37,821 nucleotides of DNA from Thainema sp. GTDB taxonomy: Bacteria > Cyanobacteriota > Cyanobacteriia > Phormidesmidales > Phormidesmidaceae. Below the pieces are notes generated by a model. It saw only the letters and a list, made by a program, of their open reading frames with translations. It had not been told where the DNA came from and made no database searches. The DNA is taken from positions 1-37,821 of the forward strand of contig JBQLZK010000067.1 of assembly GCA_052168235.1 (NCBI GenBank). The letters run 5' to 3'. The position numbers and the translations under genes are program-made. This document shows, piece after piece, positions 52-37,821 of this stretch. How positions within the stretch are numbered: position 1 is the stretch's first letter; the number at the start of each line of letters is the position of its first letter.

Positions 52-695
52 GCGTGACTAAAGCAGACTACAAGGTGTGGATTTTGGACGAGTCCCACAT
101 CGGCTTTCCCGATATGCGGAAAGAGAGCATGGTCATTGATGGCAAACCCACACAGGTGAAACGTCTATCGGATGTGATGTCGGTTGCGGCGACCTTTGGC
201 TGGCTGATCCTGTTCTGCACCCAAGCCCCCGATCGCAAGACGATTCACCGTCAGGTAGACGCCAAAATCGGCCATCGAATCGGCCTGTTGCTCCAGCGGG
301 ATAAGGATTCGGAGCTGGTCATCCAGCAGGCAGGCTGTGAGCGGTTGCTTGGCAAAGGCGATATGTTGGCCCGTCGCGGTGGAGAGGAGCCGGTGCGACT
401 GCAAGCCTACGACACATCCATCAGCGACCTGAAAGAGTGGTGCTTTCCTAAGATTGCCAAACTCACCCGCGACCAGAAACGCGATCGCACCTGTGAGTTA
501 CGCAACAAGGGCAGAACGCCTGCCTACATCATCAGCCACGTGTGGAACGTAACTGAAGGTGACGAGGGATGGTCAGCAGCACAACAGGAGTTTCTAGAGA
601 TAACTAAAGAGCTTCTAGAGCTGACCATTCAAGAACACCCTGAAAATCATCCCCCTAATAACGATTTTGGCGACAGCGGTGATTTTGCCGATTGA
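1..695 (+). CDS. FtsK/SpoIIIE-family ATPase, C-terminal part (gene starts at 36579 and wraps; about 628 aa in total)
   Basis: Walker B VWILDE, GWLILFCTQAP (cf. FtsK GIHLILATQRP), RIG, and GCERLLGKGDML (cf. GAEKLLGxGDML). Short helical C-terminal tail. In frame with 36579-37770. Confidence 0.9.
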   Translation, partial: FAYQGVSNIEDFNHLEGVTKADYKVWILDESHIGFPDMRKESMVIDGKPTQVKRLSDVMSVAATFGWLILFCTQAPDRKTIHRQVDAKIGHRIGLLLQRDKDSELVIQQAGCERLLGKGDMLARRGGEEPVRLQAYDTSISDLKEWCFPKIAKLTRDQKRDRTCELRNKGRTPAYIISHVWNVTEGDEGWSAAQQEFLEITKELLELTIQEHPENHPPNNDFGDSGDFAD

Positions 696-876
696 GTTGC
701 AATTGCAACCCTGAGTTGCAAGAAACCGCCAGAAATCAGCTCATAAGACTGTTTCAAGCTTTATCGGAGTTGCTCCGGTTTGCAACACCTCCTCTGCAAT
801 TGCTGCAACTGCATGCAAGGGGTGCAAATTCCGACCCAAAAGTCACTGGGTTGCAAGAAAAGTCGAAACGTTGCAA
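696..876. repeat. Cluster of 10 TGCAA motifs (6 as TTGCAA palindromes); candidate cis-acting protein-binding locus
   Basis: TGCAA at 698, 704, 717, 781, 795, 804, 814, 823, 852 and 872; GTTGCAAGAAA at 715 and 850. Begins right after the ATPase stop codon. Confidence 0.8.
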
Positions 877-899: not shown

Positions 900-1322
900 A
901 TGCCTAAACGCAAACGCCCAGCCACAACGCGAGTCCCTGCTTTAGTCGGTATGACTCAAGGGTTTCGCCAAACCGAAGTTGTGGACATGCTTGGTGCGTC
1001 TGATTACCAAATCAGCCGTGATTGTTCCTTGTTGTGGCCGAGCCGCCAACCTCATTCTGTGCTGACCAGAAATCAAGTTCGGACGGTGTACTGCGTCACG
1101 ATGTATCGCCACCTGGAATACAGCAAAGGCCGCCAGCAAATTCCTTCTACTGAAATCCTCGACTTCATCAACAACAGTACGGATGAGCAGATCTGGGCAG
1201 TCGTTGCGCTGGCTGGTGGCTCCACTGAGGATTGCAATGCTGGCATTGAGGAAATGCTGATGAAGCGCAACCAGCGCCGTATCCAGCAAGAAACCATCAA
1301 TGTATCTAGCACCGTCGCATAG
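900..1322 (+). CDS. Hypothetical protein (140 aa), possible HTH DNA-binding protein
   Basis: ATG 900 with GGAG RBS, preferred over the track's start at 780. FRQTEVVDMLGASDYQISRD resembles an HTH. Confidence 0.65.
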   Translation: MPKRKRPATTRVPALVGMTQGFRQTEVVDMLGASDYQISRDCSLLWPSRQPHSVLTRNQVRTVYCVTMYRHLEYSKGRQQIPSTEILDFINNSTDEQIWAVVALAGGSTEDCNAGIEEMLMKRNQRRIQQETINVSSTVA

Positions 1323-1335
1323 GAAATTTTGACCC

Positions 1336-1731
1336 ATGACCACGAACAATAACAAACCCGCTAAGACCGCAGACCAACAGGCCAGCCTAGCTCGTTCCGT
1401 CGATACCTCCAGCGCTGGCAAGATGGCGCGATCTCAGACTGCATCCAAGCCATATCGCCCTCCAGCCGTCCAGACTGAGAATCCAAATGTGAACGTAGAC
1501 GTTGAACAGTTTGAACCGGCTCAACTGGTACAAGGTGGAACTGAATTGGTTGATGCAGCCTTTGACGCTGCTGAACATGGGATGGAGAAGCGGTTCAAGG
1601 AACGCGGCCAGCAGCTCGTCAAACGCACTAACTACATGATGGCAACGCTGTTTAACGGCATGGCGGTTAAGGCTGGCAGTATCCGCAGTGCCTACATCAC
1701 TGCTCCAGATGAGGGTGAAGCCGATGAATAA
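1336..1731 (+). CDS. Hypothetical protein (131 aa) in the transfer-like operon
   Basis: ATG with AGGA RBS, 13 nt after the previous stop; its stop overlaps the next start. Confidence 0.7.
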   Translation: MTTNNNKPAKTADQQASLARSVDTSSAGKMARSQTASKPYRPPAVQTENPNVNVDVEQFEPAQLVQGGTELVDAAFDAAEHGMEKRFKERGQQLVKRTNYMMATLFNGMAVKAGSIRSAYITAPDEGEADE

Positions 1732-2095
1732 CGACATTGAGCAAATCCCTGACGAGTTTGATCCGACTCTTGCGATCGCAATTGGTCAGCACCTCGCCGA
1801 TCTTCAGTTTGATGTCGCGGAATCTAGCTATTCACAACGCCTAGACCAAAACTACAAAGGCTTTTGCCTTGCCCAGGCCAGCGATGAAGCGATGAGCCGA
1901 TACCTGGGAGAATATGTGGCCATTGTCCGACTCGACGAGCGGCTGCGGTTCATCGGTCGCACCCTCTTCTATGGGCTGCTGGTTGCGATCATTCCAGTGG
2001 GATGTGCGATCGCAGTTGGGATGAGCTTCTATTCTGCCCTGTTGCTCATTCCCGCGCTAATGGCTGGCATGTGGCTCGCCGCCGTAAATCACTGA
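1724..2095 (+). CDS. Small membrane protein (123 aa, two C-terminal TM helices)
   Basis: ATG 1724 overlaps the upstream stop, with a GAGGG RBS. Hydrophobic C-terminus LFYGLLVAIIPVGCAIAVGMSFYSALLLIPALMAGMWLAA. Confidence 0.72.
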   Translation: MNNDIEQIPDEFDPTLAIAIGQHLADLQFDVAESSYSQRLDQNYKGFCLAQASDEAMSRYLGEYVAIVRLDERLRFIGRTLFYGLLVAIIPVGCAIAVGMSFYSALLLIPALMAGMWLAAVNH

Positions 2096-2105
2096 GGACT
2101 ATCCC

Positions 2106-2168
2106 ATGTGTGAACTGATTATCGGGCTTGCGATCGCAGCCATCATCATCAAATTAACGAGTCAGTAG
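2106..2168 (+). CDS. 20-aa hydrophobic micro-peptide MCELIIGLAIAAIIIKLTSQ
   Basis: GAGGA RBS overlapping the previous stop, ATG 2106, TAG 2166-2168. Single TM-like stretch. Below the ORF-track size cut-off. Confidence 0.5.
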   Translation: MCELIIGLAIAAIIIKLTSQ

Positions 2169-2234
2169 TTAGCAGGCAGGGGAACCCGCAAAAGTAGCCC
2201 CTGCCCTATCTCCAGTAACAGAGACGAGGATATT

Positions 2235-2645
2235 ATGAACCCAATCAATATCAACATCAATCTTCCCCATGACCAGCAGCGACAGTTACCTACCTCTACT
2301 CCAGTTGTTGCAGCGCAACCGCTGGCGCGACCGTCGCAGCCGATTCAGGCTGAACTGGTGGAGCCGCATGACCAGGTCGGAGTGTTTACCGTTCCTCAAT
2401 CGGGCATCAATTGGGATGCGTTGAGAGCTGCGATCGCAGCGACCTGCTTTTTTGTAGCGCTACTTCTGCTCATTCAGTCATTCAAACCGAAGCCGAAAGA
2501 ACCCACCCTGACCCAATCTCAGGTTGACGTACTACTCCAGCGAGAGCGATCACGATGGATGGCAGAGCAGCAAGCGCTAGAATACGAGCGGCTGAATTCT
2601 GAGTATCAAGGCTTCAAGGATGGGGTGATTTACAGTCAACCGTAG
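2235..2645 (+). CDS. Single-TM membrane protein with C-terminal coiled coil (136 aa)
   Basis: GAGGA RBS; TM segment AAIAATCFFVALLLLIQSF; last gene before a terminator. Confidence 0.72.
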   Translation: MNPINININLPHDQQRQLPTSTPVVAAQPLARPSQPIQAELVEPHDQVGVFTVPQSGINWDALRAAIAATCFFVALLLLIQSFKPKPKEPTLTQSQVDVLLQRERSRWMAEQQALEYERLNSEYQGFKDGVIYSQP

Positions 2646-4481: not shown

Positions 4482-4702
4482 GCTGCAGTAAGTAAGTTAT
4501 TTAGACGAAGCGAATCTCCGTTTGCTTTAACAATAACCAAATTGATTCATGCAAAAGCGCTATGGCCCTTACCTTATAAGGGTTTTAAGTCGCAAAAGGG
4601 TGGCTTGAGCAATATAGTTATAATTTTGACTTAGAAATCTACGTAGTTTAACGTAGCTAGAAGTTTCTCATCAAAGCTGAATGACTTTTGATCAGGTGCA
4701 AT

Positions 4703-7700
4703 ATGTCTCTTACAGAAGCTAATGGCTCAGGCATTGTTTCATCCCCATCTGGCGATCTAAACTTCATATCTGATAAAAGCTTTACCAATTTAGATCCCTA
4801 TTTACTCAACACCACACAAATTGGAGGACAGCAATCGTCAGGTAGTGGAGAGTCATTACTGCCATTTGATAGCCCAGAGAAGCTGAATCCCGCAGCAGAT
4901 CAGTTATCTATTCTTTTATCCAATCCAGGATATTCAGAGCTAGTAAATAGCGAGTTTACCAGTCAGAATATCGACTTAGTTGATGAAGCGGACACGCCAA
5001 CTGATACTTTAATAGGCCAAGATGAACTGACGGTAGGGTCTGTAGATACGATTGAGCCTTTGCTCTCCAATGTCATCACCTATTCTCCCTATGTTCCTGG
5101 AGTATTTGTAGCTGGAGACAGTGGTCAGGTATCCATTGATTTTTTGTTTGACGGTGGTGGATATTCTAATGGGCAAGTCGCTATCTTCAGCGTAGAAGGA
5201 ATGGATACGCTTGTGCCCGGATCTACCGCTTTTAATCAAGAAGCGGCTTATCGTGCACGCAGTAATTCAGAGCTTGGGCATATTGTAATCAATGATCGTA
5301 AAGAGGGTGCTCGGTTTAGTGGAATTTTAAACAATAACGATCCAGTAGATCGCAACGGTGGGGAATATTTGGGTCCAAAAACTTTCCAGATGGAGCCTGG
5401 CAGCCTTTTTGCTGTGATGCTAGTCCCAAATGGGAAAGTTCAAGATGTTTTGAATAATCCAGCAGTAGAAGGTGCAAAGAAGCCACTTTACTCCATTACA
5501 GATGCTAATCCTGGTGACACGACTCATCTTGGCCAAATGCTAGATGTGGTGGGCGATGGTACTACTTTTACCATGGAAGACCAGCGAACCGACGCTGGCT
5601 CAGATATGGATATGGATGACATCATCTTTAAAGTGAGTGGGGCCATTGGATACGCGCCGTTAATGTCAGACTCCATCAATCCAGATAACGATTGGCGTTA
5701 CAGTCCTCTCGGTCAGGAAATCCTTGCTTACGTGAGCACGAACGATAATCCTGAGAAGCTGATTCCTGATGAACCAGTACGAGATCCCATTCTGCCTGCG
5801 CCACAGATACCGATATCGATAACAGATCAGGGTAGTAATACGCTGACTGAACCAACACCAACTGTGAAGTCTCCGACTCAAGATATCATCGACCAGGTCA
5901 GCAGTAGTGATGCAACAGATACTTATCGGGTCAATGTTGATGAATTGACGGATACCCAGTTTACTGTCCTAACCGGGACAACAAAGGTCAGTATCCTTAA
6001 CTCATCAGGAACTTTACTTAGCTCGCAAACATTAACTAAGGGTAGCCATAGTCTGCTTTTGCCTGCTGGTGTCACCAACGATGCCTTGATCCAGGTTGAT
6101 CAGGTTGGTGATGCAACTGCAACTTATGTGCTGTCAGGTCTTGAGAGTCAGGCTGAGGAGCCTTTTAACATTGACCTGGAATTAGATGAAGGCCTCACAG
6201 CTTCACAGCAAGCAGTGATTAATGCAGCCGCTCAAAGCATTGAGGGTCTTATCCGGCAAGGGCTACCAAGCGCGATCGTAGATGGCAAAATCATTGATGA
6301 TCTCAACGTCAAGTTTAACCTCGGCACTCTGGATGGTGCAGGGGGAACGTTAGCGCAAACCAAGATTGACTTCATGCGCTACGGAATTCTGCTCCCAGCT
6401 CAATCAATTGTGCAGTTTGATCAAGATGACTTTGCGGATTTAGAGCAATCAGGGGAACTGTTCAACGTTGTCCAACACGAGTTGTTGCATGCCCTGGGGT
6501 TTGGCAACCTTTGGGAGGCAAAAGGTCTAGTTGACTACGCTAAAACACCATTCGCCCAGTACAACGGACAATATGCTCTCGCCGCCTTTAAAGAAGCAGG
6601 AGGAGCCACCAACTTTATTTCTCTGGATACAGAAGGCGAGGGCTCGGCTGATCTGCACTGGAATGAAAATCTGTTCCAAGATGAAATCATGACCCGGGAT
6701 TTGAATGCCCAGGGTGGTGATGCGGTAATTAGTCGAGTGACGTTGGCGTCCCTCAGGGATCTGGGCTATGTAGTGGACGCTGAAGGTGTTCCATCTGACT
6801 TGAGCTTGTCCCCAGAGGATATTCCTCAAGACTTCGTCACGGGTTTCACAGAAGAAGAAAAGTTCTCGCTGGCGCAATTAGTTGCTGATGCGGAGACCCA
6901 GGTCAGTAATGGAATTCCTGCGGTTGTGCCCACGGTGGATGCAAATGAGATTGCGCCTACCATTTGGGCTAATGCGGAGCGTTTCGACAAAAATGGCGAA
7001 TACTACGATTGGGAATGGGTCATTATTCAGCCAGGGAACACTATTAGCCAGTACGTCTACGATCGCATGACGGACCATACAGGCAGTGATAATCGCACTC
7101 GTTTACAGAAAGCGAGTGATCCAGCCTACTGGGCCTTCATTAGTGAGCGCAACGGATTTCCTGATCCTAACTGGATTGTAGCCGGTGATCCTGCTTGGCT
7201 TCCGGTTTGGCATCCTAACTATGAGCAGGAGCAAGAAGAAGAACGGAGGCGTCGTGAGGAAGAGCTGAGACAAAGAGAGGAAGAGGAAAGACAGCAACGA
7301 GAGAAACTGGAAGAAGCTTATCGCCAGAGTGGACAGGGCGGTCTAGAGTGGTATGTCGCTAAACCTTTGCCAGACTTCAGTACCTCTGCACCTTACACAA
7401 CAGAGATTCAAGATATTGTCGGCAATCTGGTGCCAGATGACTATTTCCGTTTCACGTTATCTCGTAATGGGCGAGTTACCCTCTATCTAGAGGACTTGCT
7501 AGCAGATGCTGATTTGTATTTGTATGACTCCCGAAATCGCCTGATTGGTAAGTCTGCTCGTGGTGGTCTGACGGACGAAAAGCTCATTCTAGATTTGGCG
7601 GCGGGAACTTACCTAGCTAGAGTCAATAGTCCAGGTGGAGTGACGACGGACTACAAATTGAAAGTGCAGTTTCAGGGACAGCTAACTCGCAGCCAAATGG

Positions 7701-9829
7701 GACCGCCTGTGGGGTGGGTTCCGGGTGTAGGTGTTCCGGGTGGCAGTGGCAGACCAAGTCCAACGTTCAGTGATCCACGAATCGAGCGGATCTTTACAAC
7801 CGCTAGAGATAAGTTTGCTAACGAGCAATGGGCGCAGGCTCAACCTCAGATTGATAGCTTGGAAGCGCAAAAACGGCAGAAGCAGAGAGAACTCGATCAG
7901 CTTTTAGCAGAAGCAATTGCTCAACAAAAGGCGAAGGTTAACGCCGCTCTCGACAATGTCAGAAATGATTTGACAGGAAGAATTTCTGGTATTGCTGATG
8001 GCATTAAGCACAACATCTATTGGGCTGCTGAGAATGGAATTAATGCAGTCAACTGGTTGGTACCTGGTTGGTTGCAGGACAAGCTCGACTGGTTAGGGCT
8101 AGGTGATGGAGTTCGCTCGGCTCAGGACACACTGCGTAATGCTATTCGGGGCGCGCGCGATTGGCTAAACTCACAGATTGATTGGGTTCGCAACCAGATC
8201 AATGGAGCCATCTCTCAATTTATTGAGATGGTTAAGAATGCCTATTTAACAGGAGCAGAGATTAATGCAGCAATTGACGGGGCTGCTAATTGGCTCAGAA
8301 GCAAGACCGATAGCCTGGTCAACTTCCTGAATGGCAAAATTGGTGAATTTAAAGGCTGGATCTTAGGCAAACTGGAGTGGACTAGAAACATCCGTACGCC
8401 GGATTGGGCAAGAAGGCTTGGTGTTCCCGACTGGAATCTGTATGACCATGCGATCGCAGGATTGGTTGATGGTGCTACTAGGGGCGTTCAAAGTGCAATC
8501 AGTGGCACGGGTAATCTCTTTAAGGGAGTACTGGATGTTGCTACGCCTCTAGCCCAAGGTGCTGTTGCGGTCATTGTTGACGCCATCTTTGGCGACCAAA
8601 CTGGCAGACTCTACAACGAAATCAATGGCATTAATCAGAAGATTTCATCTATTAAAGCAGGAGTACAGAAGGCAATCCAGGATCAGACTGCCTTTTACAA
8701 AAATCTATTGGACGGCTTCCTAAATGGTTTAGGGCAAGCCAAGGACTTTATTGTTGGCGCTTTGATGGGTGAGTTTAATAGTCAACCCTCGATCTGGCAA
8801 ACATTGTTAGATGCAGCCATCGGCATGATTCCTATTGTGGGAGAAATTGGCGACGTTCGTGATCTGATTGCATTCACAGCGAAGTTTATTAACGACCCCA
8901 ACGAAATGCAGGACTTCTGGAATTGGGTCGGTGTTGTCGGAGCTGGTATTGGTTTAGTTCCAGTAGTTGGGGGCGCAATTAAAGGGGTTACCAAGCTTGC
9001 CCGGAATGCTGATCTGATTACAGAGATTAGAAAGCTAGGCCCGACTATAGTTAATTCGGTAACTGATTTCGCACGGAAAACCGACTGGGCGGCACTTGGT
9101 AATAAGACTGCCGATTTTTGGGATAATATTCTCTCGACAGTGGAGAATATTACCAATGATCTTATAGAGGCTATGCAGAGATTTAAGAGTCTCATGCCTC
9201 AACTGAAGCTTTCTCCTCAGCCAGCTGGTGGAGTTTTACCTGATGAGGGCTTCTTTGCAAAGGTATTAGACGGAATTGATGAACTAAAAAGGATTAGTCG
9301 AGAGAAGATAGACGAAGCATTTGCGTTTGTTCAAGGTAAGTTTGACGAATTGGCCAGTAGTGGAGCTAAAGTCCTTTCTGGAAGTCCACCTTTCTCTCAG
9401 GACACTATTAGGCGATTTCTAGATGAAACAGAAAGTTTAGGAGAAGGTCATATATATGCAAGACATATTTCAACAGGAGATCTTGTAGCAGACCAGAAAA
9501 CACTTCAAACGCGTTTGGCTGATCGACAAAGAGGCTCATCTGAATACTATAAAGATGAGTTTTCGATGTTTTGGGACAAGCAATCTGCTACGCAAGTGAT
9601 TACACAAGCGATTAATTCTAAGTATTCAGAAATTGAAGCTTTGGTCAAGGCTAATCCTCAAAAGGCTGTGAAAAAAGAATTTTCTGTATCTGTTAATAGT
9701 TCTGATACTGCTTTTGGGATAAATTCCGTTGGCGAATATATTGAGTCTCAACTCACAGATATAAAGCTGGTAATAAAGACACGCGAAGATGGAAGTTGGT
9801 TTGTACTCACGGCTTATCCTATTATTTAG
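4703..9829 (+). CDS. Giant multidomain polymorphic toxin: DUF4114-like, zinc metallopeptidase, LysM-like, PPC, helical stalk, pre-toxin TG-like region, C-terminal RNase A-like (CdiA-CT type) domain
   Basis: MEDQRTDAGSDMDMDDIIF (DUF4114-like); HELLHALGF..HW..EIMT..SRVTLASLRDLGY (leishmanolysin/M8-like); IQPGNTIS..ISERNGFPDPNWIVAG (LysM-like); DYFRF..DADLYLYD..AGTYLARV (PPC); IGMIPIVGEIGD..GLVPVVGGAIKG (PT-TG-like); GHIYARH..WFVLTAYP (RNase A-like toxin). ATG 4703 preferred over TTG 4688. Confidence 0.8.
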   Translation: MSLTEANGSGIVSSPSGDLNFISDKSFTNLDPYLLNTTQIGGQQSSGSGESLLPFDSPEKLNPAADQLSILLSNPGYSELVNSEFTSQNIDLVDEADTPTDTLIGQDELTVGSVDTIEPLLSNVITYSPYVPGVFVAGDSGQVSIDFLFDGGGYSNGQVAIFSVEGMDTLVPGSTAFNQEAAYRARSNSELGHIVINDRKEGARFSGILNNNDPVDRNGGEYLGPKTFQMEPGSLFAVMLVPNGKVQDVLNNPAVEGAKKPLYSITDANPGDTTHLGQMLDVVGDGTTFTMEDQRTDAGSDMDMDDIIFKVSGAIGYAPLMSDSINPDNDWRYSPLGQEILAYVSTNDNPEKLIPDEPVRDPILPAPQIPISITDQGSNTLTEPTPTVKSPTQDIIDQVSSSDATDTYRVNVDELTDTQFTVLTGTTKVSILNSSGTLLSSQTLTKGSHSLLLPAGVTNDALIQVDQVGDATATYVLSGLESQAEEPFNIDLELDEGLTASQQAVINAAAQSIEGLIRQGLPSAIVDGKIIDDLNVKFNLGTLDGAGGTLAQTKIDFMRYGILLPAQSIVQFDQDDFADLEQSGELFNVVQHELLHALGFGNLWEAKGLVDYAKTPFAQYNGQYALAAFKEAGGATNFISLDTEGEGSADLHWNENLFQDEIMTRDLNAQGGDAVISRVTLASLRDLGYVVDAEGVPSDLSLSPEDIPQDFVTGFTEEEKFSLAQLVADAETQVSNGIPAVVPTVDANEIAPTIWANAERFDKNGEYYDWEWVIIQPGNTISQYVYDRMTDHTGSDNRTRLQKASDPAYWAFISERNGFPDPNWIVAGDPAWLPVWHPNYEQEQEEERRRREEELRQREEEERQQREKLEEAYRQSGQGGLEWYVAKPLPDFSTSAPYTTEIQDIVGNLVPDDYFRFTLSRNGRVTLYLEDLLADADLYLYDSRNRLIGKSARGGLTDEKLILDLAAGTYLARVNSPGGVTTDYKLKVQFQGQLTRSQMGPPVGWVPGVGVPGGSGRPSPTFSDPRIERIFTTARDKFANEQWAQAQPQIDSLEAQKRQKQRELDQLLAEAIAQQKAKVNAALDNVRNDLTGRISGIADGIKHNIYWAAENGINAVNWLVPGWLQDKLDWLGLGDGVRSAQDTLRNAIRGARDWLNSQIDWVRNQINGAISQFIEMVKNAYLTGAEINAAIDGAANWLRSKTDSLVNFLNGKIGEFKGWILGKLEWTRNIRTPDWARRLGVPDWNLYDHAIAGLVDGATRGVQSAISGTGNLFKGVLDVATPLAQGAVAVIVDAIFGDQTGRLYNEINGINQKISSIKAGVQKAIQDQTAFYKNLLDGFLNGLGQAKDFIVGALMGEFNSQPSIWQTLLDAAIGMIPIVGEIGDVRDLIAFTAKFINDPNEMQDFWNWVGVVGAGIGLVPVVGGAIKGVTKLARNADLITEIRKLGPTIVNSVTDFARKTDWAALGNKTADFWDNILSTVENITNDLIEAMQRFKSLMPQLKLSPQPAGGVLPDEGFFAKVLDGIDELKRISREKIDEAFAFVQGKFDELASSGAKVLSGSPPFSQDTIRRFLDETESLGEGHIYARHISTGDLVADQKTLQTRLADRQRGSSEYYKDEFSMFWDKQSATQVITQAINSKYSEIEALVKANPQKAVKKEFSVSVNSSDTAFGINSVGEYIESQLTDIKLVIKTREDGSWFVLTAYPII

Positions 9830-17904: not shown

Positions 17905-18494
17905 TATGCCAGCACCTCCTGTCCTAAAGTTTCATATCCTTCCCAGGCAACAGCAGCTCTTGGATCGGAGTAGTCTTTCACAATCACTCCTGTGAGCGGT
18001 GCTCGTTCAAAGGCAACTAATCGCCGAATCTCTGCATCGAAAACTGGAATTCCTTCTTGAGTGAGCAAGTCTCGGGCTTCTTTGCCTGCTTGACTCGGGG
18101 CAGGTGGCACGATCGTCAGCAGTACTTTGAAGTTGGTCTCCATTTTTTGCAAAACATCGACAGTACGTAGTAAAGCATCTAGATCGAGAGCCTTAGGAGT
18201 TGTTGGCAAAATCAGCAGATCGCAGGAGTCGGCTAGTTCCTCTAAATCTTCTTTAGTAGGCCGAGCTTGTGTGTCGATCACAATATGCTCAAACTGGCGA
18301 ATATATTTGGCCATCTGAACATCCGTGACGACCTTGAACGGGAGCTTATTTGGTGCAGCCCAGGTCATGGCGGAGCGATTTTGGTCTCCGTCTACGAGTA
18401 GCGTTGGTTTGTCTTCATTGAGATAAGCGGCTAGGTGTATGGCTGTCGTCGTTTTGCCCACTCCACCTTTGAAGCTTGCAACAGTCACGATCAT
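17904..18494 (-). CDS. parA: Short Walker-type partition ATPase
   Basis: Deviant Walker A KGGVGKTT, LVDGDQN, IVIDT; 196 aa with no N-terminal HTH (type Ib). Confidence 0.93.
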   Translation of the reverse strand: MIVTVASFKGGVGKTTTAIHLAAYLNEDKPTLLVDGDQNRSAMTWAAPNKLPFKVVTDVQMAKYIRQFEHIVIDTQARPTKEDLEELADSCDLLILPTTPKALDLDALLRTVDVLQKMETNFKVLLTIVPPAPSQAGKEARDLLTQEGIPVFDAEIRRLVAFERAPLTGVIVKDYSDPRAAVAWEGYETLGQEVLA

Positions 18495-18501
18495 AGGTTT
18501 T

Positions 18502-18643
18502 TCATTTCGGGTATACGCTTAATCAAAAATTCAGCTATTCAGCTATTTAAAATATCGAACTTTCACCTGTTTAAGTATTCAATTATGCAAAAAATCAAAA
18601 TTTCGGTATTTTGCGTACGCAAAATACCGAAATTTTGATTTTT
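18502..18643. repeat. Phased 8-bp repeat array ending in a perfect 54-bp palindrome (candidate centromere/operator)
   Basis: About 14 contiguous degenerate octamers nnwwTTCR (e.g. AAAATTCA GCTATTCA GCTATTTA AAATATCG AACTTTCA) at 18502-18613; palindrome 18590-18643 centred on GCGTACGC. Confidence 0.78.
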
Positions 18644-22665: not shown

Positions 22666-23090
22666 CAGCACTATTTCTCTTGGATACTAATATCATTTCT
22701 GAAATCAATAAGAAGGCTCCCAACGACTCTGTAGTTGCAAAGATGGATTTGTATGAGGGCAAAGTTGCAACTGCATCTGTTGTTGTGCACGAGTTGCTTT
22801 ATGGTGTGTTGCGGATGCCGCCTGAATCAGCAAAACGGAGGTTTTTGTTGGACTATCTAACTGAATTGCCATCAAAGTTGACTGTTTTGGACTATGACTT
22901 AGACGCTGCCCGCTGGCACGCGGAAGAACGGGCAAGGCTGTCTAAGATTGGCAAAACACCTGCATTTGTGGATGGTCAAATTGCTAGCATTGCGGTTTGC
23001 AACGGGTTGAGGCTAGTGACTCGTAATGGGGCAGATTTTCAGGACTTTGAAGGTCTGACCATTGCAAACTGGTTTGAAGAAGAGAGTTGA
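22662..23090 (+). CDS. vapC: PIN-domain ribonuclease toxin
   Basis: LLDTNIISE, ELLYG, DGQIASIA, LVTRN..DF. Confidence 0.93.
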   Translation: MTALFLLDTNIISEINKKAPNDSVVAKMDLYEGKVATASVVVHELLYGVLRMPPESAKRRFLLDYLTELPSKLTVLDYDLDAARWHAEERARLSKIGKTPAFVDGQIASIAVCNGLRLVTRNGADFQDFEGLTIANWFEEES

Positions 23091-32204: not shown

Positions 32205-33797
32205 CTACTGCATCATATTGGCCTCAGTCAGTTTGTGACCTGTCATGCGATGCAGCAACTGTTGCCAAATCTTAGGCTTAACCTCCTCCTGCCGAATTCG
32301 ATGCCCTTTTCCAAATAAAGCATTCAGCCAATGGCTCTTGGGAATTTCTAGAGCACGGATATCATCGCCACTGACAATTAGCTCAGTAGGGATAGCTGTT
32401 CCTTCAACTGCTCTAGGCTCATCTGGCTCCGAATGCACGAGCTGTAACGCTGTGCCTGGTAATAGATGCCAGGCTCCACCTAGTAGAAAGTCAAGTTCAT
32501 AGACTTGACGATCCAATGCATCGTAGGTAATCCCTCTGATTGTCTGCTTCATGCCATGAAACCGAGTACCTGGCATTTGAATAACGACCATGTCTCCGGG
32601 CTTAAACAGGGACTCCCCTGAATTAGAGGTAGATATGCTTTCCTGAGCTGAGCTGAAATTTTCAGTTACTACTTCTTCCTTTGTGGATCGGTCTGACGGC
32701 TTCCGGTTTCTGCCCTCGGCTTCCGGTTTCGATTTATTTGTTCTTTCTTCAGCCTCCTTAGTTTCTTTCTCTTTAGTTTCAACAATCCCAACATCAATGC
32801 CGACGGCTTTTTCTTCTTCTTTTATTCGTTTCTTCAGATCCTTCTTTTTCCAGCCCTGTTTAATCATTTCAATGTCATCAAAGTTATACACATTAGTTGA
32901 GAGTTGGAACACAGCTTTTCCATAGTTGTAGTTCCGGATCATCTCTTTCGCACTCATGTGTGCACCTTCGATCGTTAATGCATTGAAGACCGTTTTCCAG
33001 TTTCTGGGCGAGTCATCCGTTTTAACGGCGAGTTGGGTTTTTTGAATTTGTTTTCCGATTGCCTCCTGCTTTAAACGAGAGAGTCGCGATCGCACGGTTC
33101 GGTCAGAAACTTCGAGATGTTCCGCGACCCGTTCTTGAGATACGCCATACGGAAGGAAGTCTCTAGAGACGAATGTACATCTTGGTCCCTGATAGATGAT
33201 GTGTGTTTCAGCACCCCAATTCTGGCACTGTTTCTGTCGACTATCAGCGAACAGTTTGTCTATCGGTGTAACTTGCCGTTTTTCGTCTGTGTCTTCCTGT
33301 TTTGTATGTCTGGTAGCTGCAATGACGCTTGACCGTTGTAGTGCTTCGGTCTGAACTTCAGTGGCAGCAATACTTAAATGGGTGAGCCGTTCTAGTGGAA
33401 TACGGCCAAACGAACCAAGGTGCTCTTTGCCTTGCTCGAATGCAATTCTGGCCTCTGATTTGTAGCGGACGAGAACGTTGTCACCTTTGATCTTCACGTT
33501 CCAAAAGAAGCCATTATGGAGGCCCTGATAGAGGTTTTTCCGGACGGTTGCTGGTGTTTTGTTCAGATGCTGAGCTGCTTTAGTTAGGCTAAATTGAGCC
33601 CAGCCAGAACCAGCTTTAGAGCCGATGGCGTCTTTACTGTCATGATGACGTGCGAGGTAGTACTCTGCTGCTCCACCTCTCAGGTTCCCAATTACGGATG
33701 AGATAGACACCATCGGAGTAGTGGTCTTGGTTGTGCAATTAGTGTCTGTTGCTTGTGGGCTTTGGGAGGATTGATTAGTAAATAACTGTTGTTTCAT
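32205..33797 (-). CDS. Two-HTH DNA-binding protein (530 aa), candidate replication initiator
   Basis: HTH-like SLTKAAQHLNKTPATVRKNL and VSQERVAEHLEVSDRTVRSRL; KOW-like FKPGDMVVI; AAGGAG RBS. The Rep role is inferred by elimination. Confidence 0.55.
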   Translation of the reverse strand: MKQQLFTNQSSQSPQATDTNCTTKTTTPMVSISSVIGNLRGGAAEYYLARHHDSKDAIGSKAGSGWAQFSLTKAAQHLNKTPATVRKNLYQGLHNGFFWNVKIKGDNVLVRYKSEARIAFEQGKEHLGSFGRIPLERLTHLSIAATEVQTEALQRSSVIAATRHTKQEDTDEKRQVTPIDKLFADSRQKQCQNWGAETHIIYQGPRCTFVSRDFLPYGVSQERVAEHLEVSDRTVRSRLSRLKQEAIGKQIQKTQLAVKTDDSPRNWKTVFNALTIEGAHMSAKEMIRNYNYGKAVFQLSTNVYNFDDIEMIKQGWKKKDLKKRIKEEEKAVGIDVGIVETKEKETKEAEERTNKSKPEAEGRNRKPSDRSTKEEVVTENFSSAQESISTSNSGESLFKPGDMVVIQMPGTRFHGMKQTIRGITYDALDRQVYELDFLLGGAWHLLPGTALQLVHSEPDEPRAVEGTAIPTELIVSGDDIRALEIPKSHWLNALFGKGHRIRQEEVKPKIWQQLLHRMTGHKLTEANMMQ

Positions 33798-35237: not shown

Positions 35238-35301
35238 AGGTAGCCAATATACAAATAAAAGTATCTTCTGGGTTGCTAAATGGCTACCTTATGGCTACCA
35301 T
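35238..35301. promoter_or_regulatory. Divergent promoter with GGTAGCCA/TGGCTACC operator repeats
   Basis: GGTAGCCA 35239, GGTTGCTA 35271, TGGCTACC 35281 and 35292; the last copy overlaps a -10-like TACCAT at 35296. Confidence 0.55.
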
Positions 35302-35362
35302 TTTAACAAGATTTGCAACAATCGCAGATTTTGCACATATCGCTACATGAGGAAACTGATTT

Positions 35363-36031
35363 ATGGCAACAGCCGCACCCCCTCAAATGAACTGGCGCGT
35401 TGGTCAAACGGGGATCTCGTCAAACGGAGCCGCCCGCGTCAATGATGAATTTCGCGTTGATATCAATAAGCTGGGTCGCCTCACCCCGTCTGAGGTTCGC
35501 GCTCAATCGCAACTAGCTAAGGATCTGCGTCAGCAGGTCGTTTTGGCGAAGCAATATAAGACCGCTAGCGAGGACGTGATTAAATCCAAAGTCACGATTG
35601 AAGAGCTGCGTACTGACCTGCTCGCTAAAGGATTAGAAGGTGCGAAAGCCGTCGATAACCTGGTCAGCCGCGCCCAGTTGCAAACCGGACAATACATGCA
35701 ATCACTGCAAACCACTGCTCACGCAACTCAGTTGGGCTTAAGTGCGATCGCAGAAAGCGGTCAGATGGAACGCGACACACTCACAACCAAATATCAGTTA
35801 AAAGCGCAACAGGCTCGACAGCTTCAAGCCTCAAAGCTCCAGCAGATGGGAACCAGTATGGGCAAGGAAACCCAGATGAAGCTGGATGACGCTCGGCAGA
35901 AAGCGGCAGCTAAGGAGCAACAGAAACAGGAAGAAATTGCGCTGAAGCGCTACATCCGAGCCGATGACTATACGCCCAACACAGGCAAAGCTCCAGGCCC
36001 GTTCCAGCGCATTCTCAATCTGGTGGCATAG
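35363..36031 (+). CDS. Helical/coiled-coil protein (222 aa), first gene of the transfer-like operon
   Basis: GAGG RBS; Q/A/K-rich helical sequence. Confidence 0.75.
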   Translation: MATAAPPQMNWRVGQTGISSNGAARVNDEFRVDINKLGRLTPSEVRAQSQLAKDLRQQVVLAKQYKTASEDVIKSKVTIEELRTDLLAKGLEGAKAVDNLVSRAQLQTGQYMQSLQTTAHATQLGLSAIAESGQMERDTLTTKYQLKAQQARQLQASKLQQMGTSMGKETQMKLDDARQKAAAKEQQKQEEIALKRYIRADDYTPNTGKAPGPFQRILNLVA

Positions 36032-36042
36032 GGTTAGTTGCT

Positions 36043-36612
36043 ATGTATACCCACGAGCATAATCCTGAACTAGAGCGACTTAGAGCGTTGCAGGAATCTG
36101 CGATCGCAACTCCTCCCCATCCTGAAGTTCCGACTTGGAACTACCACACGATCAACCGAGCGGGTTCGATGTTCGGTCTGCTGTTCGGCAGTTGGATGTT
36201 TCTCACGTTCCTGGCTCGGCTTCTGCCTGACTTTGCGTTCATCTACCTGATTCTGACTGGAGCCGGATTACTGGCCTGTTTCTACGTTGCGATCGCAGGT
36301 CATCCCAACCTGTTCACGCTAGTTGGAATCACAGCCTTTGGCGTCATCATCGCCACGCTGCTGGCCAGTTGGGATCTACTTCTGGGGCTGTTCTATTACC
36401 AAGGCAGTCCCATTTGGAAATTCTTCATTGTTGCGATGGGGTTTGTCTTGAGCGTGGGTCTGTTTCGATTGTTCTTCAACATTCGACGACCCAAAGCGCA
36501 GCAACAAACTCCGGTCGAATCGCAGCAAACCCAATCCGAACAAGCCTATGACGCTGCCTGGCAAGCGTATTTGCAACAATGGACTTCTCAATCCACCGAC
36601 AATCCATCTTGA
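36043..36612 (+). CDS. Four-TM membrane protein (189 aa)
   Basis: Four hydrophobic segments; 3' end overlaps the start of the FtsK-like gene. Confidence 0.78.
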   Translation: MYTHEHNPELERLRALQESAIATPPHPEVPTWNYHTINRAGSMFGLLFGSWMFLTFLARLLPDFAFIYLILTGAGLLACFYVAIAGHPNLFTLVGITAFGVIIATLLASWDLLLGLFYYQGSPIWKFFIVAMGFVLSVGLFRLFFNIRRPKAQQQTPVESQQTQSEQAYDAAWQAYLQQWTSQSTDNPS

Positions 36613-37821
36613 TCTATCAAGCAGCGGGTGTGTTCGGACTGCTAATTGCCTCCTGGGGACGGCTTGATCCAACCGTCGTCACCCCGGCTGGTCAGCGGTT
36701 GCCGCATTGGGCGGTAACTAACCGTGCTCAAATTGCAGCCATCTATGCACCGGATAGCTGGTCAAAAATGGCTGGCATCATGATTGCGATCGCAGGATTC
36801 GGTAAGGCATACCAAACCAGCAAGATAGCCGAAAAAGACGAGCGGGAGCTGTTGCGCCAGCTCAATCATGAGTTGCGACTGCGAGCGGTTCGAGAGCAGG
36901 AAGAACTCCAGCGGCAACTGCTGGCCAGCTCCGAAATGCTCAAGATTGCTCAAGTGGTGGAGAACCTGCGAGCTGAAGAGAAAGGTGATGAGGAGATTGC
37001 CGCGATTCTCGGCATTGACGTAGCTGAACTGAAAGCGCTGGGTGCTCCCCAGCCGGAAGCGTTACCCGCTCAAGCCGTGTCACGGGAAAATGACACATCG
37101 GAGCCACGGATACCGAATCCGCCCGACGATCCAACCGTGCATGGACTTTTGCAGGCGACGCTGAAGGCACTTCACAAGGCAAATTACTATGCCGACTATG
37201 TGACCTGCTTCAAAGGGCCATCGTTCATCCAGTTCATCCTGGAGATGCGAGACCCGAAAAAACTACCAGAAGCCATTGATAGAACCCCATCAATCGTCCA
37301 GGCCAGTTTGCACCTGCCCAAACTGCCCATGTCAGACAACGAGCATGGTTTCTTATCCTTGTCGCTGGCACGACCCGACCGGGAGCTGCGGAAGCTGGCA
37401 GACGAGATTGACGATATCCCAGTCCCTAAGCGTCCATCGCTGTTCCTGGGTGTTGACCTAAAAGAAATCAGGCACTACATCCATCTGGACGGTAAAGAAA
37501 TGGAGGCCGTCTTAATCGGTGGTCTGCCCCGTGTGGCTGGCAAGACCAACCTGATCCGGCAGATGATCGGCTTCGCCGCCAAAAACTACTCATACCGTCA
37601 CATTCAGTTTCTCGTCTTTGACGGCAAAGGAACTGAGCTGAACCCGCTCAAAAATTCGCCCTATCTGGCTGAATGGCCATCGACCGCTAACCGCTTGGTC
37701 GGGCATTCAGAAGAGGACGCAGAATTGCAGCTTCAGTGGGTCGAGCAGGACATCGAAAACCGTCGCAGCCTATTCGCCTATCAAGGTGTGTCCAACATTG
37801 AGGACTTTAACCACCTCGAAG
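36579..37821 (+). CDS. FtsK/SpoIIIE-family ATPase, N-terminal part (continues across the junction to 695); not in the ORF track
   Basis: Open from ATG 36579 (MDFSIHRQSILIYQAAGVFGLLIASW..): two hydrophobic segments, coiled coil, GPSF, LFLGVDL, Walker A-like LIGGLPRVAGKTN, FLVFDGKGTEL (cf. IDPK..EL), DIENRRSLF. Confidence 0.88.
   Translation, partial: MDFSIHRQSILIYQAAGVFGLLIASWGRLDPTVVTPAGQRLPHWAVTNRAQIAAIYAPDSWSKMAGIMIAIAGFGKAYQTSKIAEKDERELLRQLNHELRLRAVREQEELQRQLLASSEMLKIAQVVENLRAEEKGDEEIAAILGIDVAELKALGAPQPEALPAQAVSRENDTSEPRIPNPPDDPTVHGLLQATLKALHKANYYADYVTCFKGPSFIQFILEMRDPKKLPEAIDRTPSIVQASLHLPKLPMSDNEHGFLSLSLARPDRELRKLADEIDDIPVPKRPSLFLGVDLKEIRHYIHLDGKEMEAVLIGGLPRVAGKTNLIRQMIGFAAKNYSYRHIQFLVFDGKGTELNPLKNSPYLAEWPSTANRLVGHSEEDAELQLQWVEQDIENRRSLFAYQGVSNIEDFNHLE
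37771..37821. repeat. Terminal direct repeat, right copy (circular-assembly overlap)
   Basis: Identical to bases 1-51. Confidence 0.97.

Follow-up and report, generated by a model that had tools for sequence, protein, structure and literature searches.

The window analysed here, meaning the whole 37,821-bp stretch that makes up contig C67 (JBQLZK010000067.1) of the cyanobacterium Thainema sp., carries a dense array of TTGCAA-type short repeats in the spacer between a gene for an FtsK-like ATPase and a gene for a protein of 140 amino acids (aa). From sequence comparison we regard the array as a real, functional-looking cis array of an uncharacterised plasmid module, in which a 222-aa coiled-coil-like protein, a 189-aa membrane protein, the ATPase, the spacer, the 140-aa protein and three small proteins follow one another (Table 1). 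The two ends of the contig (1-51 and 37771-37821) are 51 identical bases lying inside the ATPase gene, and the first open reading frame (ORF) of the window is therefore the tail of its last one; joining 36579-37821 to 52-695 restores a single gene of 628 codons. C67 is probably a circular plasmid of ~37.8 kb, a circularity that is fitted and short of proof because the 51-bp overlap falls in sequence that two paralogues also have.

The array directly abuts the stop codon of the ATPase gene: the TGA occupies 693-695, the array begins at the next base, and its first TTGCAA lies one base past the stop. Ten copies of TGCAA start on the plus strand at 698, 704, 717, 781, 795, 804, 814, 823, 852, and 872, and the six minus-strand copies at 697, 703, 716, 780, 851, and 871 correspond to the palindromic TTGCAA. 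The 11-bp word GTTGCAAGAAA occurs twice, at 715-725 and 850-860. The direction of the repeats is ambiguous because the TTGCAA core is itself a palindrome. A better description of the motif is RGTTGCAA or the half-site GTTGC/GCAAC. RGTTGCAA occurs six times in the array, four times on the plus and twice on the minus strand, accompanied by four more same-strand TGCAA. The words are 6-8 bp long, irregularly spaced and present in both orientations, and the sole tandem call within the array comprises 2.7 copies of a 9-bp unit. The sites are weakly helically phased, with a best period of 9.7 bp (R 0.67) that 197 of 5,000 random placements equal.

Counted on both strands of the whole window, TGCAA shows no overall enrichment (116 copies vs 126 ± 13 in shuffles), so the signal of the array is purely local. 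The richest 181-bp stretch of the window contains 10 core sites and the runner-up only three, and six of the 21 TTGCAA of the window fall inside the array. Across the 7.54-Mb genome, with 15,601 core sites or 0.37 per 181 bp, the array is the densest cluster, followed by C56:23119 with nine sites and by C9:89822 with eight, the latter being a paralogous copy of the same locus. GTTGCAA occurs at six sites of the array on either strand against 0.039 expected, which gives a Poisson P of about 5e-12 with 157 7-mers tested; over the whole window there are 14 against 7.6 expected by shuffling. None of 20,000 first-order Markov simulations on the region's own composition reached 10 TGCAA, and the maximum was seven. 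An earlier sequence-only reading of this DNA had described ten TGCAA, six of them TTGCAA, and one 11-bp word present twice, had seen nothing comparably dense elsewhere, and had proposed a k-mer enrichment test; the motif count, the genome ranking and the enrichment test bear it out on each point. The second-densest cluster of the genome (C56:23119-23300) is a GCAGTTGCA-type periodic stretch and is not related to the module.

Table 1. Features of the module and of its repeat array in the window.
Feature	Position	Strand	Remarks
ATPase gene, 3' part, 230 codons	3..695	+	rest joined across the contig ends
ATPase C-terminal three-helix HTH-like tail	468..635	+	residues 156-211 of the partial ORF
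TTGCAA/RGTTGCAA array	696..876	.	10 TGCAA including 6 TTGCAA; cores conserved among three paralogues
Site A, perfect 14-bp palindrome GTTGCAATTGCAAC	696..709	.	formed by the first two copies, directly after the stop
Site B, GTTGCAA (GAGTTGCAAGAAA)	715..721	+	
Site C, GTTGCAA	780..786	-	TTGCAAC on the plus strand; TTGCAA invariant in three paralogues
Four same-strand TGCAA at 9-10-bp spacing	795..827	+	Tandem Repeats Finder period 9
Two GTTGCAA sites, 20 bp apart (850, 870)	850..876	+	last one invariant, 24 nt before the ATG
140-aa protein gene	900..1322	+	predicted: basic N-terminal arm, MerR-like winged HTH, long C-terminal helix
Three small genes: 131 aa; 124 aa (predicted membrane segments); 136 aa (membrane segment)	1336..2645	+	
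TTGCA-type sites (TTGCAAC ... TTTTGCAC)	35313..35335	.	28-50 nt upstream of the ATG of the first module gene
First two module genes: 222-aa coiled-coil-like and 189-aa membrane protein	35363..36612	+	homologues in pLBA
ATPase gene, 5' part, 414 codons	36579..37821	+	97% identical to the C9 paralogue over its residues 1-414

The identity of the ATPase rests on a full-length paralogue of 617 aa on contig C9, which matches PF01580 at E 2.3e-12 (47.3 bits, cut-off 24) and the FtsK motor 2ius at E 4.8e-8; the 230-aa fragment of the window alone gave no PF01580 match. The paralogue has membrane segments near its N-terminus and ends in a conserved tail some 50 residues long, which in the window is predicted to form three helices resembling a helix-turn-helix (HTH). 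The gene upstream of the array is therefore of the FtsK/SpoIIIE family and ends in a short C-terminal domain, as the sequence-only reading had said of it. No FtsK_gamma or other Pfam match was obtained for the tail at E<=10. Its third helix (GW.AAQQEFL.I) is acidic, stays conserved in sequences with as little as about 30% identity, and looks more like a structural element than one that reads bases. Members of the ATPase family are very rare: only four cluster representatives at E<=1e-30 were found among 1.84 billion, a word-indexed protein search gave two matches, and PLSDB gave none at E<=1e-15. A search of a phylum sample matched 29 of 401 genomes at E<=1e-10, where all listed non-self places had 22-29% identity and represent generic FtsK; alignment to metagenome contigs likewise gave generic FtsK motors only. 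Plasmid FtsK genes from Nostocales and Pseudanabaena (H30 and H31) were dropped as relatives, having other architectures and no spacer.

On the other side of the array, the 140-aa protein has 16 homologues, all of about 140 aa. Its structure model, with a predicted local distance difference test score of 83, starts with a basic arm that is disordered and continues with a domain at residues ~19-106 and a terminal helix of 31 residues. MerR-family structures head two mutually independent fold searches of this model, with middling scores; the Foldseek matches are CarH, SoxR, CueR, MtaN, TipAN, and RacA at E 0.1-0.6. The protein has no Pfam, NCBIfam or PHROG match, and no MerR-family sequence model stood among its Pfam matches, which were followed to E 0.1 for the whole protein and to E 10 for residues 1-67. 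Its profile found nothing relevant among the PDB sequences, and a scan of metagenome contigs with it returned none. Of the wider searches for relatives, scans of viral contigs found none and the ESM Atlas gave only scores below 0.9. On the model, the predicted fold of the 140-aa protein is a winged helix of MerR type to which a long C-terminal helix is added.

The module is present three times in this genome, on C67, C9, and C87, and a sister species holds a copy (L038/G569) that is nearly identical to that of C9 and was the sole locus in the scan of genome contigs. Counting the window's own genome, the module was found in 2 of 173 genomes of the order and in 5 of 401 of the class. The three small genes downstream of the 140-aa gene are syntenic in C9 and L038, and their products have no family match in Pfam, NCBIfam or PHROG. 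In the alignment of the C67, C9, and C87 spacers, 27 of 36 columns in the TTGCAA cores are invariant vs 39 of 134 in the remaining spacer, a conservation that only six of 20,000 permutations matched. The palindrome of site A is kept in C87 as GTTGCTATAGCAAC, with symmetric changes at positions 6 and 9, and reads GTTGCACTTGCAAC in C9, an imperfect palindrome. The arrays hold 10 sites in C67, eight in C9, and four to five in C87; the TGCAA at 795, 804, and 814 are private to the C67 copy, the fourth of that row (823) is conserved, and site C reads TTGTAA in the sister species. Contigs from sequencing runs (X1, X2, X3, and X5) were compared at a likeness of at least 80%, with the middle of the array not covered: one X5 contig matches 663-738 and 810-890, and what separates the two parts has the same length but a diverged sequence; one X3 contig matches 574-708 and then joins at 851; and one X2 contig matches 804-995 with zero differences. 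No RNA run is listed for the stretch.

TTGCA-type sites also lie about 45-55 nt upstream of the first module gene in all three paralogues, where the conservation of the alignment begins at the TTGCA word. The copy of the sister species lacks these sites because a transposase-like ORF (L038 172-663, minus strand, within 1-700) replaces the region upstream of the first module gene. A second, different operator-like element stands at 35238-35299 of the window, upstream of the same gene, with two copies of ATGGCTACC 11 bp apart and an inverted AGGTAGCCA nearby. The C9 copy (L001; G000 C9:82000-98000) is on a 149-kb contig beside two paralogous proteins of 477 and 519 aa whose family is unassigned, and the ATPase gene of C87, a contig of 22.8 kb, is also split over both contig ends.

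The profile of the 140-aa protein further found the Leptolyngbya boryana plasmid pLBA and two loci in genome G294 (C74 and C30), which came from the class-level sample with its five matching genomes. The small proteins of this pLBA type and of the window are related at an hhalign probability of 97.5% (E 6e-12), the first module gene matches a 219-aa protein of pLBA in BLASTP at E 4e-11, and the module membrane protein matches a 159-aa protein of pLBA at E 2e-4. The pLBA-type modules are syntenic with the window module and homologous for three genes. Their ATPase is a membrane-anchored P-loop protein of about 440 aa, and in all three modules it has no C-terminal HTH tail. In hhalign, the pLBA ATPase aligned to the FtsK-like family over the N-terminal membrane region only, with a probability of 75%, for which reason homology of the two ATPase types is not established.

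The pLBA-type spacers are 178-200 nt long and start with an inverted repeat over the ATPase stop codon, which is GTAGAA-N5-TTCTAC in pLBA, GTAGCA-N6-TGCTAC in G294:C74, and GTAGCATG-A-CATGCTAC in G294:C30. The repeats near the small gene are the same half-site as this stop-codon inverted repeat. In pLBA, TAGAACG occurs five times in the spacer and nowhere else in 9 kb; in G294:C30, GCATG occurs five times on the plus strand of the spacer and nowhere else on the plus strand in 3.4 kb. Ahead of the first gene of the pLBA module (pLBA 76894-76944; L125 2395-2445), TCGCA[CT]G-like words stand at a spacing of about 10 bp and adjoin a TGTTCTA/TAGCACG pair; they are of the same word family as the G294:C30 array. 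An inverted repeat at or just past the ATPase stop was found in all six modules (C67, C9, C87, pLBA, G294:C74, and G294:C30), as was a homologue of the 140-aa protein, whereas the ATPase tail is absent from three of the six. Strong arrays are present in four of the six copies and weaker ones in the other two. Homologous modules carry clusters with other words, and the repeats are therefore a feature of the module whose word turns over. Over their last 120 residues the two G294 ATPases share 97% identity, although they stand beside different words (CACG vs CATG); the two G294 small proteins share 75% and differ in the putative recognition helix.

These comparisons bear on the proposal, made in the sequence-only reading, that the array is the loading site for the C-terminal domain of the ATPase. 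The array and the tail are both real, and repeat clusters with differing words do recur at the same place in the homologues. However, the word does not change in step with the ATPase tail, and the pLBA-type modules keep arrays where the tail is absent; in a clt, the region at the 3' end of the translocase gene that is recognised by TraB, the word would be expected to change with the DNA-binding domain of the translocase, and in the pLBA-type modules it does not. The alternative of an operator for the downstream 140-aa HTH protein, which the sequence-only reading had also named, comes out as the better-supported one because the word does not follow the tail, the small protein is ubiquitous in the modules, and TTGCA sites exist upstream of the first gene, where they fit a regulator better than a loading site.

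We infer that the array is a cis-acting region at which a protein would bind in a conserved plasmid module, and that its binder would be the 140-aa protein, which would regulate the module and might hand the DNA over to the pump. That the array is a binding array or operator for the 140-aa protein, and may double as a clt-like handle for the pump, is the reading we favour, at a likelihood that we put near the midpoint. Dimers of the protein would recognise the half-site GTTGC(A), the winged HTH reading the DNA and the long C-terminal helix pairing the subunits. The 14-bp palindrome abutting the ATPase stop would be the strongest site, at which dimers would nucleate, and the RGTTGCAA sites, roughly in helical phase, would load further copies across the ~180-bp spacer. 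The resulting nucleoprotein complex would occupy the start region of the protein's own, second operon and, together with the two to three TTGCA sites before the first gene, would control the expression of the whole module. It may also offer the plasmid to the ATPase and in this way form a two-part counterpart to TraB and clt.

Several observations weigh against this reading. The dyad geometry expected of a MerR-type dimer is found at site A only; elsewhere the sites stand singly, as 6-8-bp words that lie in both orientations, an arrangement that would fit a monomeric reader like the ATPase tail, and the window-type ATPase has its HTH-like tail where TraB has its DNA reader. A promoter scan detected no sigma-70-type promoter in the spacer. 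The C87 array is limited to four or five sites, in the G294:C74 spacer TC[GA]CACG occurs only twice and no k-mer reaches three copies, and the repeats themselves may have anchored the footprint alignment of the three paralogues. Moreover, the comparative set is small and non-independent, consisting of three paralogues in one genome, two in another, and pLBA.

Among the known systems, the layout closest to the window module is that of TraB, clt and spd in the Streptomyces plasmids pSVH1, pIJ101, and pJV1. If the array were a true clt, the ATPase tail would read RGTTGCAA and a hexameric pump would assemble on it and move double-stranded plasmid DNA into a neighbouring cell; we consider this unlikely, while taking it as a serious contender. 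The window ATPase resembles TraB in being a membrane-associated motor of the FtsK family; it has membrane segments near its N-terminus and ends in a three-helix, HTH-like tail of DNA-binding type, and its gene is followed at the 3' end, immediately after the stop codon, by a cluster of 6-10 occurrences of a 7-8-bp word. The small membrane-protein genes that adjoin the array recall the spd genes. As in the TraB plasmids, a type IV secretion system (T4SS) or relaxase is undetected in the window, with neither relaxase nor VirB4 found among its ORFs by Pfam, NCBIfam or PHROGs, and the host is probably filamentous. According to excerpts of one article (PMC4447253), clt regions consist of direct repeats of an 8-bp word recognised by TraB. 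The repeats of the array are partly palindromic, which leaves their direction ambiguous, and occur in both orientations, the tail has no FtsK_gamma-type match and an acidic, conserved third helix, and the tail-less relatives keep their arrays. Extra sites at the start of the upstream operon and the background level of GTTGCAA outside the cluster (eight further sites) also speak against a clt, and here the adjoining MerR-like protein appears to be the better candidate reader. The host, too, is different, being a cyanobacterium: a 2025 review, as excerpted (PMC12282955), places the double-stranded DNA system in Streptomyces and conjugation by an MPF-C-class T4SS in cyanobacteria, and a full-text search of the literature returned no description of a TraB-type system in cyanobacteria. 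The array possibly has a clt-like role, either directly or via the 140-aa protein.

Other known systems offer further parallels. In the case of phage lambda, gpNu1, a small MerR-like winged HTH protein, binds several repeated sites of cosB directly in front of its own gene and brings in a DNA-translocating ATPase; the motor there is the terminase in packaging and not an FtsK-type hexamer. In the case of pIJ101, SpdA2 is a small DNA-binding protein of a TraB-type transfer region that binds a palindrome, sps, next to or within its own gene (PMC4170104, in excerpts), and it has been proposed as an interface between the DNA and the translocation apparatus (PMC4170104 and PMC4447253, both in excerpts). 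The window module is like SpdA2 and sps, as far as those excerpts describe them, in pairing a small plasmid-encoded candidate DNA-binding protein with a short palindrome by its own gene, but sps is one palindrome inside a coding region and not an intergenic array. RacA of B. subtilis and Par of pSK1 combine a MerR-type winged HTH with a coiled coil, bind repeated centromere-like sites and tether the DNA to a partner (PMC4914108 and PMC11500499, in excerpts). The predicted architecture of the 140-aa protein is similar to theirs as so described; it shares no sequence similarity with them, and its partner here would be an FtsK-like pump rather than DivIVA or a membrane helix.

A wider proposal, which we hold to be doubtful, is the following: some cyanobacterial plasmids might carry a T4SS-independent, Streptomyces-like module for the transfer or spreading of double-stranded DNA, built from a membrane-anchored FtsK-like pump, small membrane proteins and a separate MerR-like adaptor that reads a fast-evolving array, placed between the pump gene and the adaptor gene, as a two-component clt. 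Protein-bound arrays of short repeats are familiar as operators, centromeres and clt, but modules of the present type have no characterised member. If the module does move or spread plasmid DNA, TraB-type transfer of double-stranded DNA would extend beyond the actinomycetes into cyanobacteria, and the array would be a defined site in cis with which mobilisable vectors could be built or tracked. If it is an operator only, the array and the 140-aa protein would still be a testable protein-DNA pair with diversified specificity (TTGCAA, TAGAACG, and GCATG).

An element of replication or partition, either as origin iterons or as a centromere with the 140-aa protein as a single-protein partition factor of the pSK1 Par/RacA type, has in our estimate a small probability. 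Short repeats directly upstream of a gene for a MerR-type winged HTH with a long helix, as predicted here, are the architecture of RacA and pSK1 Par as given in excerpts of PMC11500499 and PMC4914108, and the module adjoins the region of a putative replication gene in both C67 and C9. Against this stands that in all six modules the array is strictly linked with the genes for the ATPase and the membrane proteins, which argues for a function within the module; GC skew is uninformative. Iterons are directly repeated units of ~17-22 bp beside a rep gene. The words of the array are short (6-8 bp) and irregular, and the putative rep gene of the window (32208-33797) lies about 4.7 kb off across the contig junction, so the array is unlike iterons, an alternative raised in the sequence-only reading. 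The centromere repeats of pSK1 reportedly lie upstream of par. Also against a role in replication or partition, the window plasmid has its own ParA gene (17907-18494), with a separate perfect palindrome of 54 bp (27 + 27) just upstream at 18590-18643. A tandem of 2.4 copies of ATTCAGCT also stands upstream of this gene, at 18529-18547, and the palindrome and the ATTCAGCT tandem are together probably a par operator or centromere.

That the stretch is no protein site at all, being instead a terminator or RNA structure, a small Cys-rich coding frame or neutral repeat debris, is very improbable: hairpin formation is possible at the inverted repeat behind the stop, with -7 to -13 kcal/mol in contexts of 36 nt, and this repeat is followed by a short T run in pLBA and G294:C74, yet a scan of the region found no terminator-like site, no Rfam match was obtained at E<=1, and the fold z-score is only -1.86; a 71-aa ORF (692-907) is present in the C67 copy, but its frame has eight stops in C9 and four in C87, which led us to reject the coding frames at 692-907 and 780; and debris does not agree with the conservation of the TTGCAA cores among the paralogues. 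The Cys codons of the 692-907 ORF arise because TGC sits within TTGCAA, and protein-coding conservation of the segment, which the sequence-only reading had named as counting against a loading site, was looked for and is not kept in C9 or C87.

The remaining gene content of the window is plasmid-like and includes, besides ParA, a tyrosine recombinase, a type I restriction-modification system, a PIN protein and a polymorphic-toxin-like protein. The latter, of 1,713 aa (4688-9829), contains a DUF4114, a pre-peptidase C-terminal domain and a C-terminal CdiA-CT RNase-A-like domain, and by these domains is a polymorphic-toxin-like cargo gene of the plasmid. Inside the PIN-domain gene, a stretch of ~330 bp (22735-23067) holds four TTGCAA, three of them within GTTGCAA or GTTGCAAC, and is the second-richest spot for this word in the window; it may be due to chance or be a further binding site. 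In the genome as a whole, GCGATCGC occurs in 8,963 copies vs 115 expected; we take this palindrome to be a cyanobacterial marker, and the nearest relatives of the genome also point to cyanobacteria.
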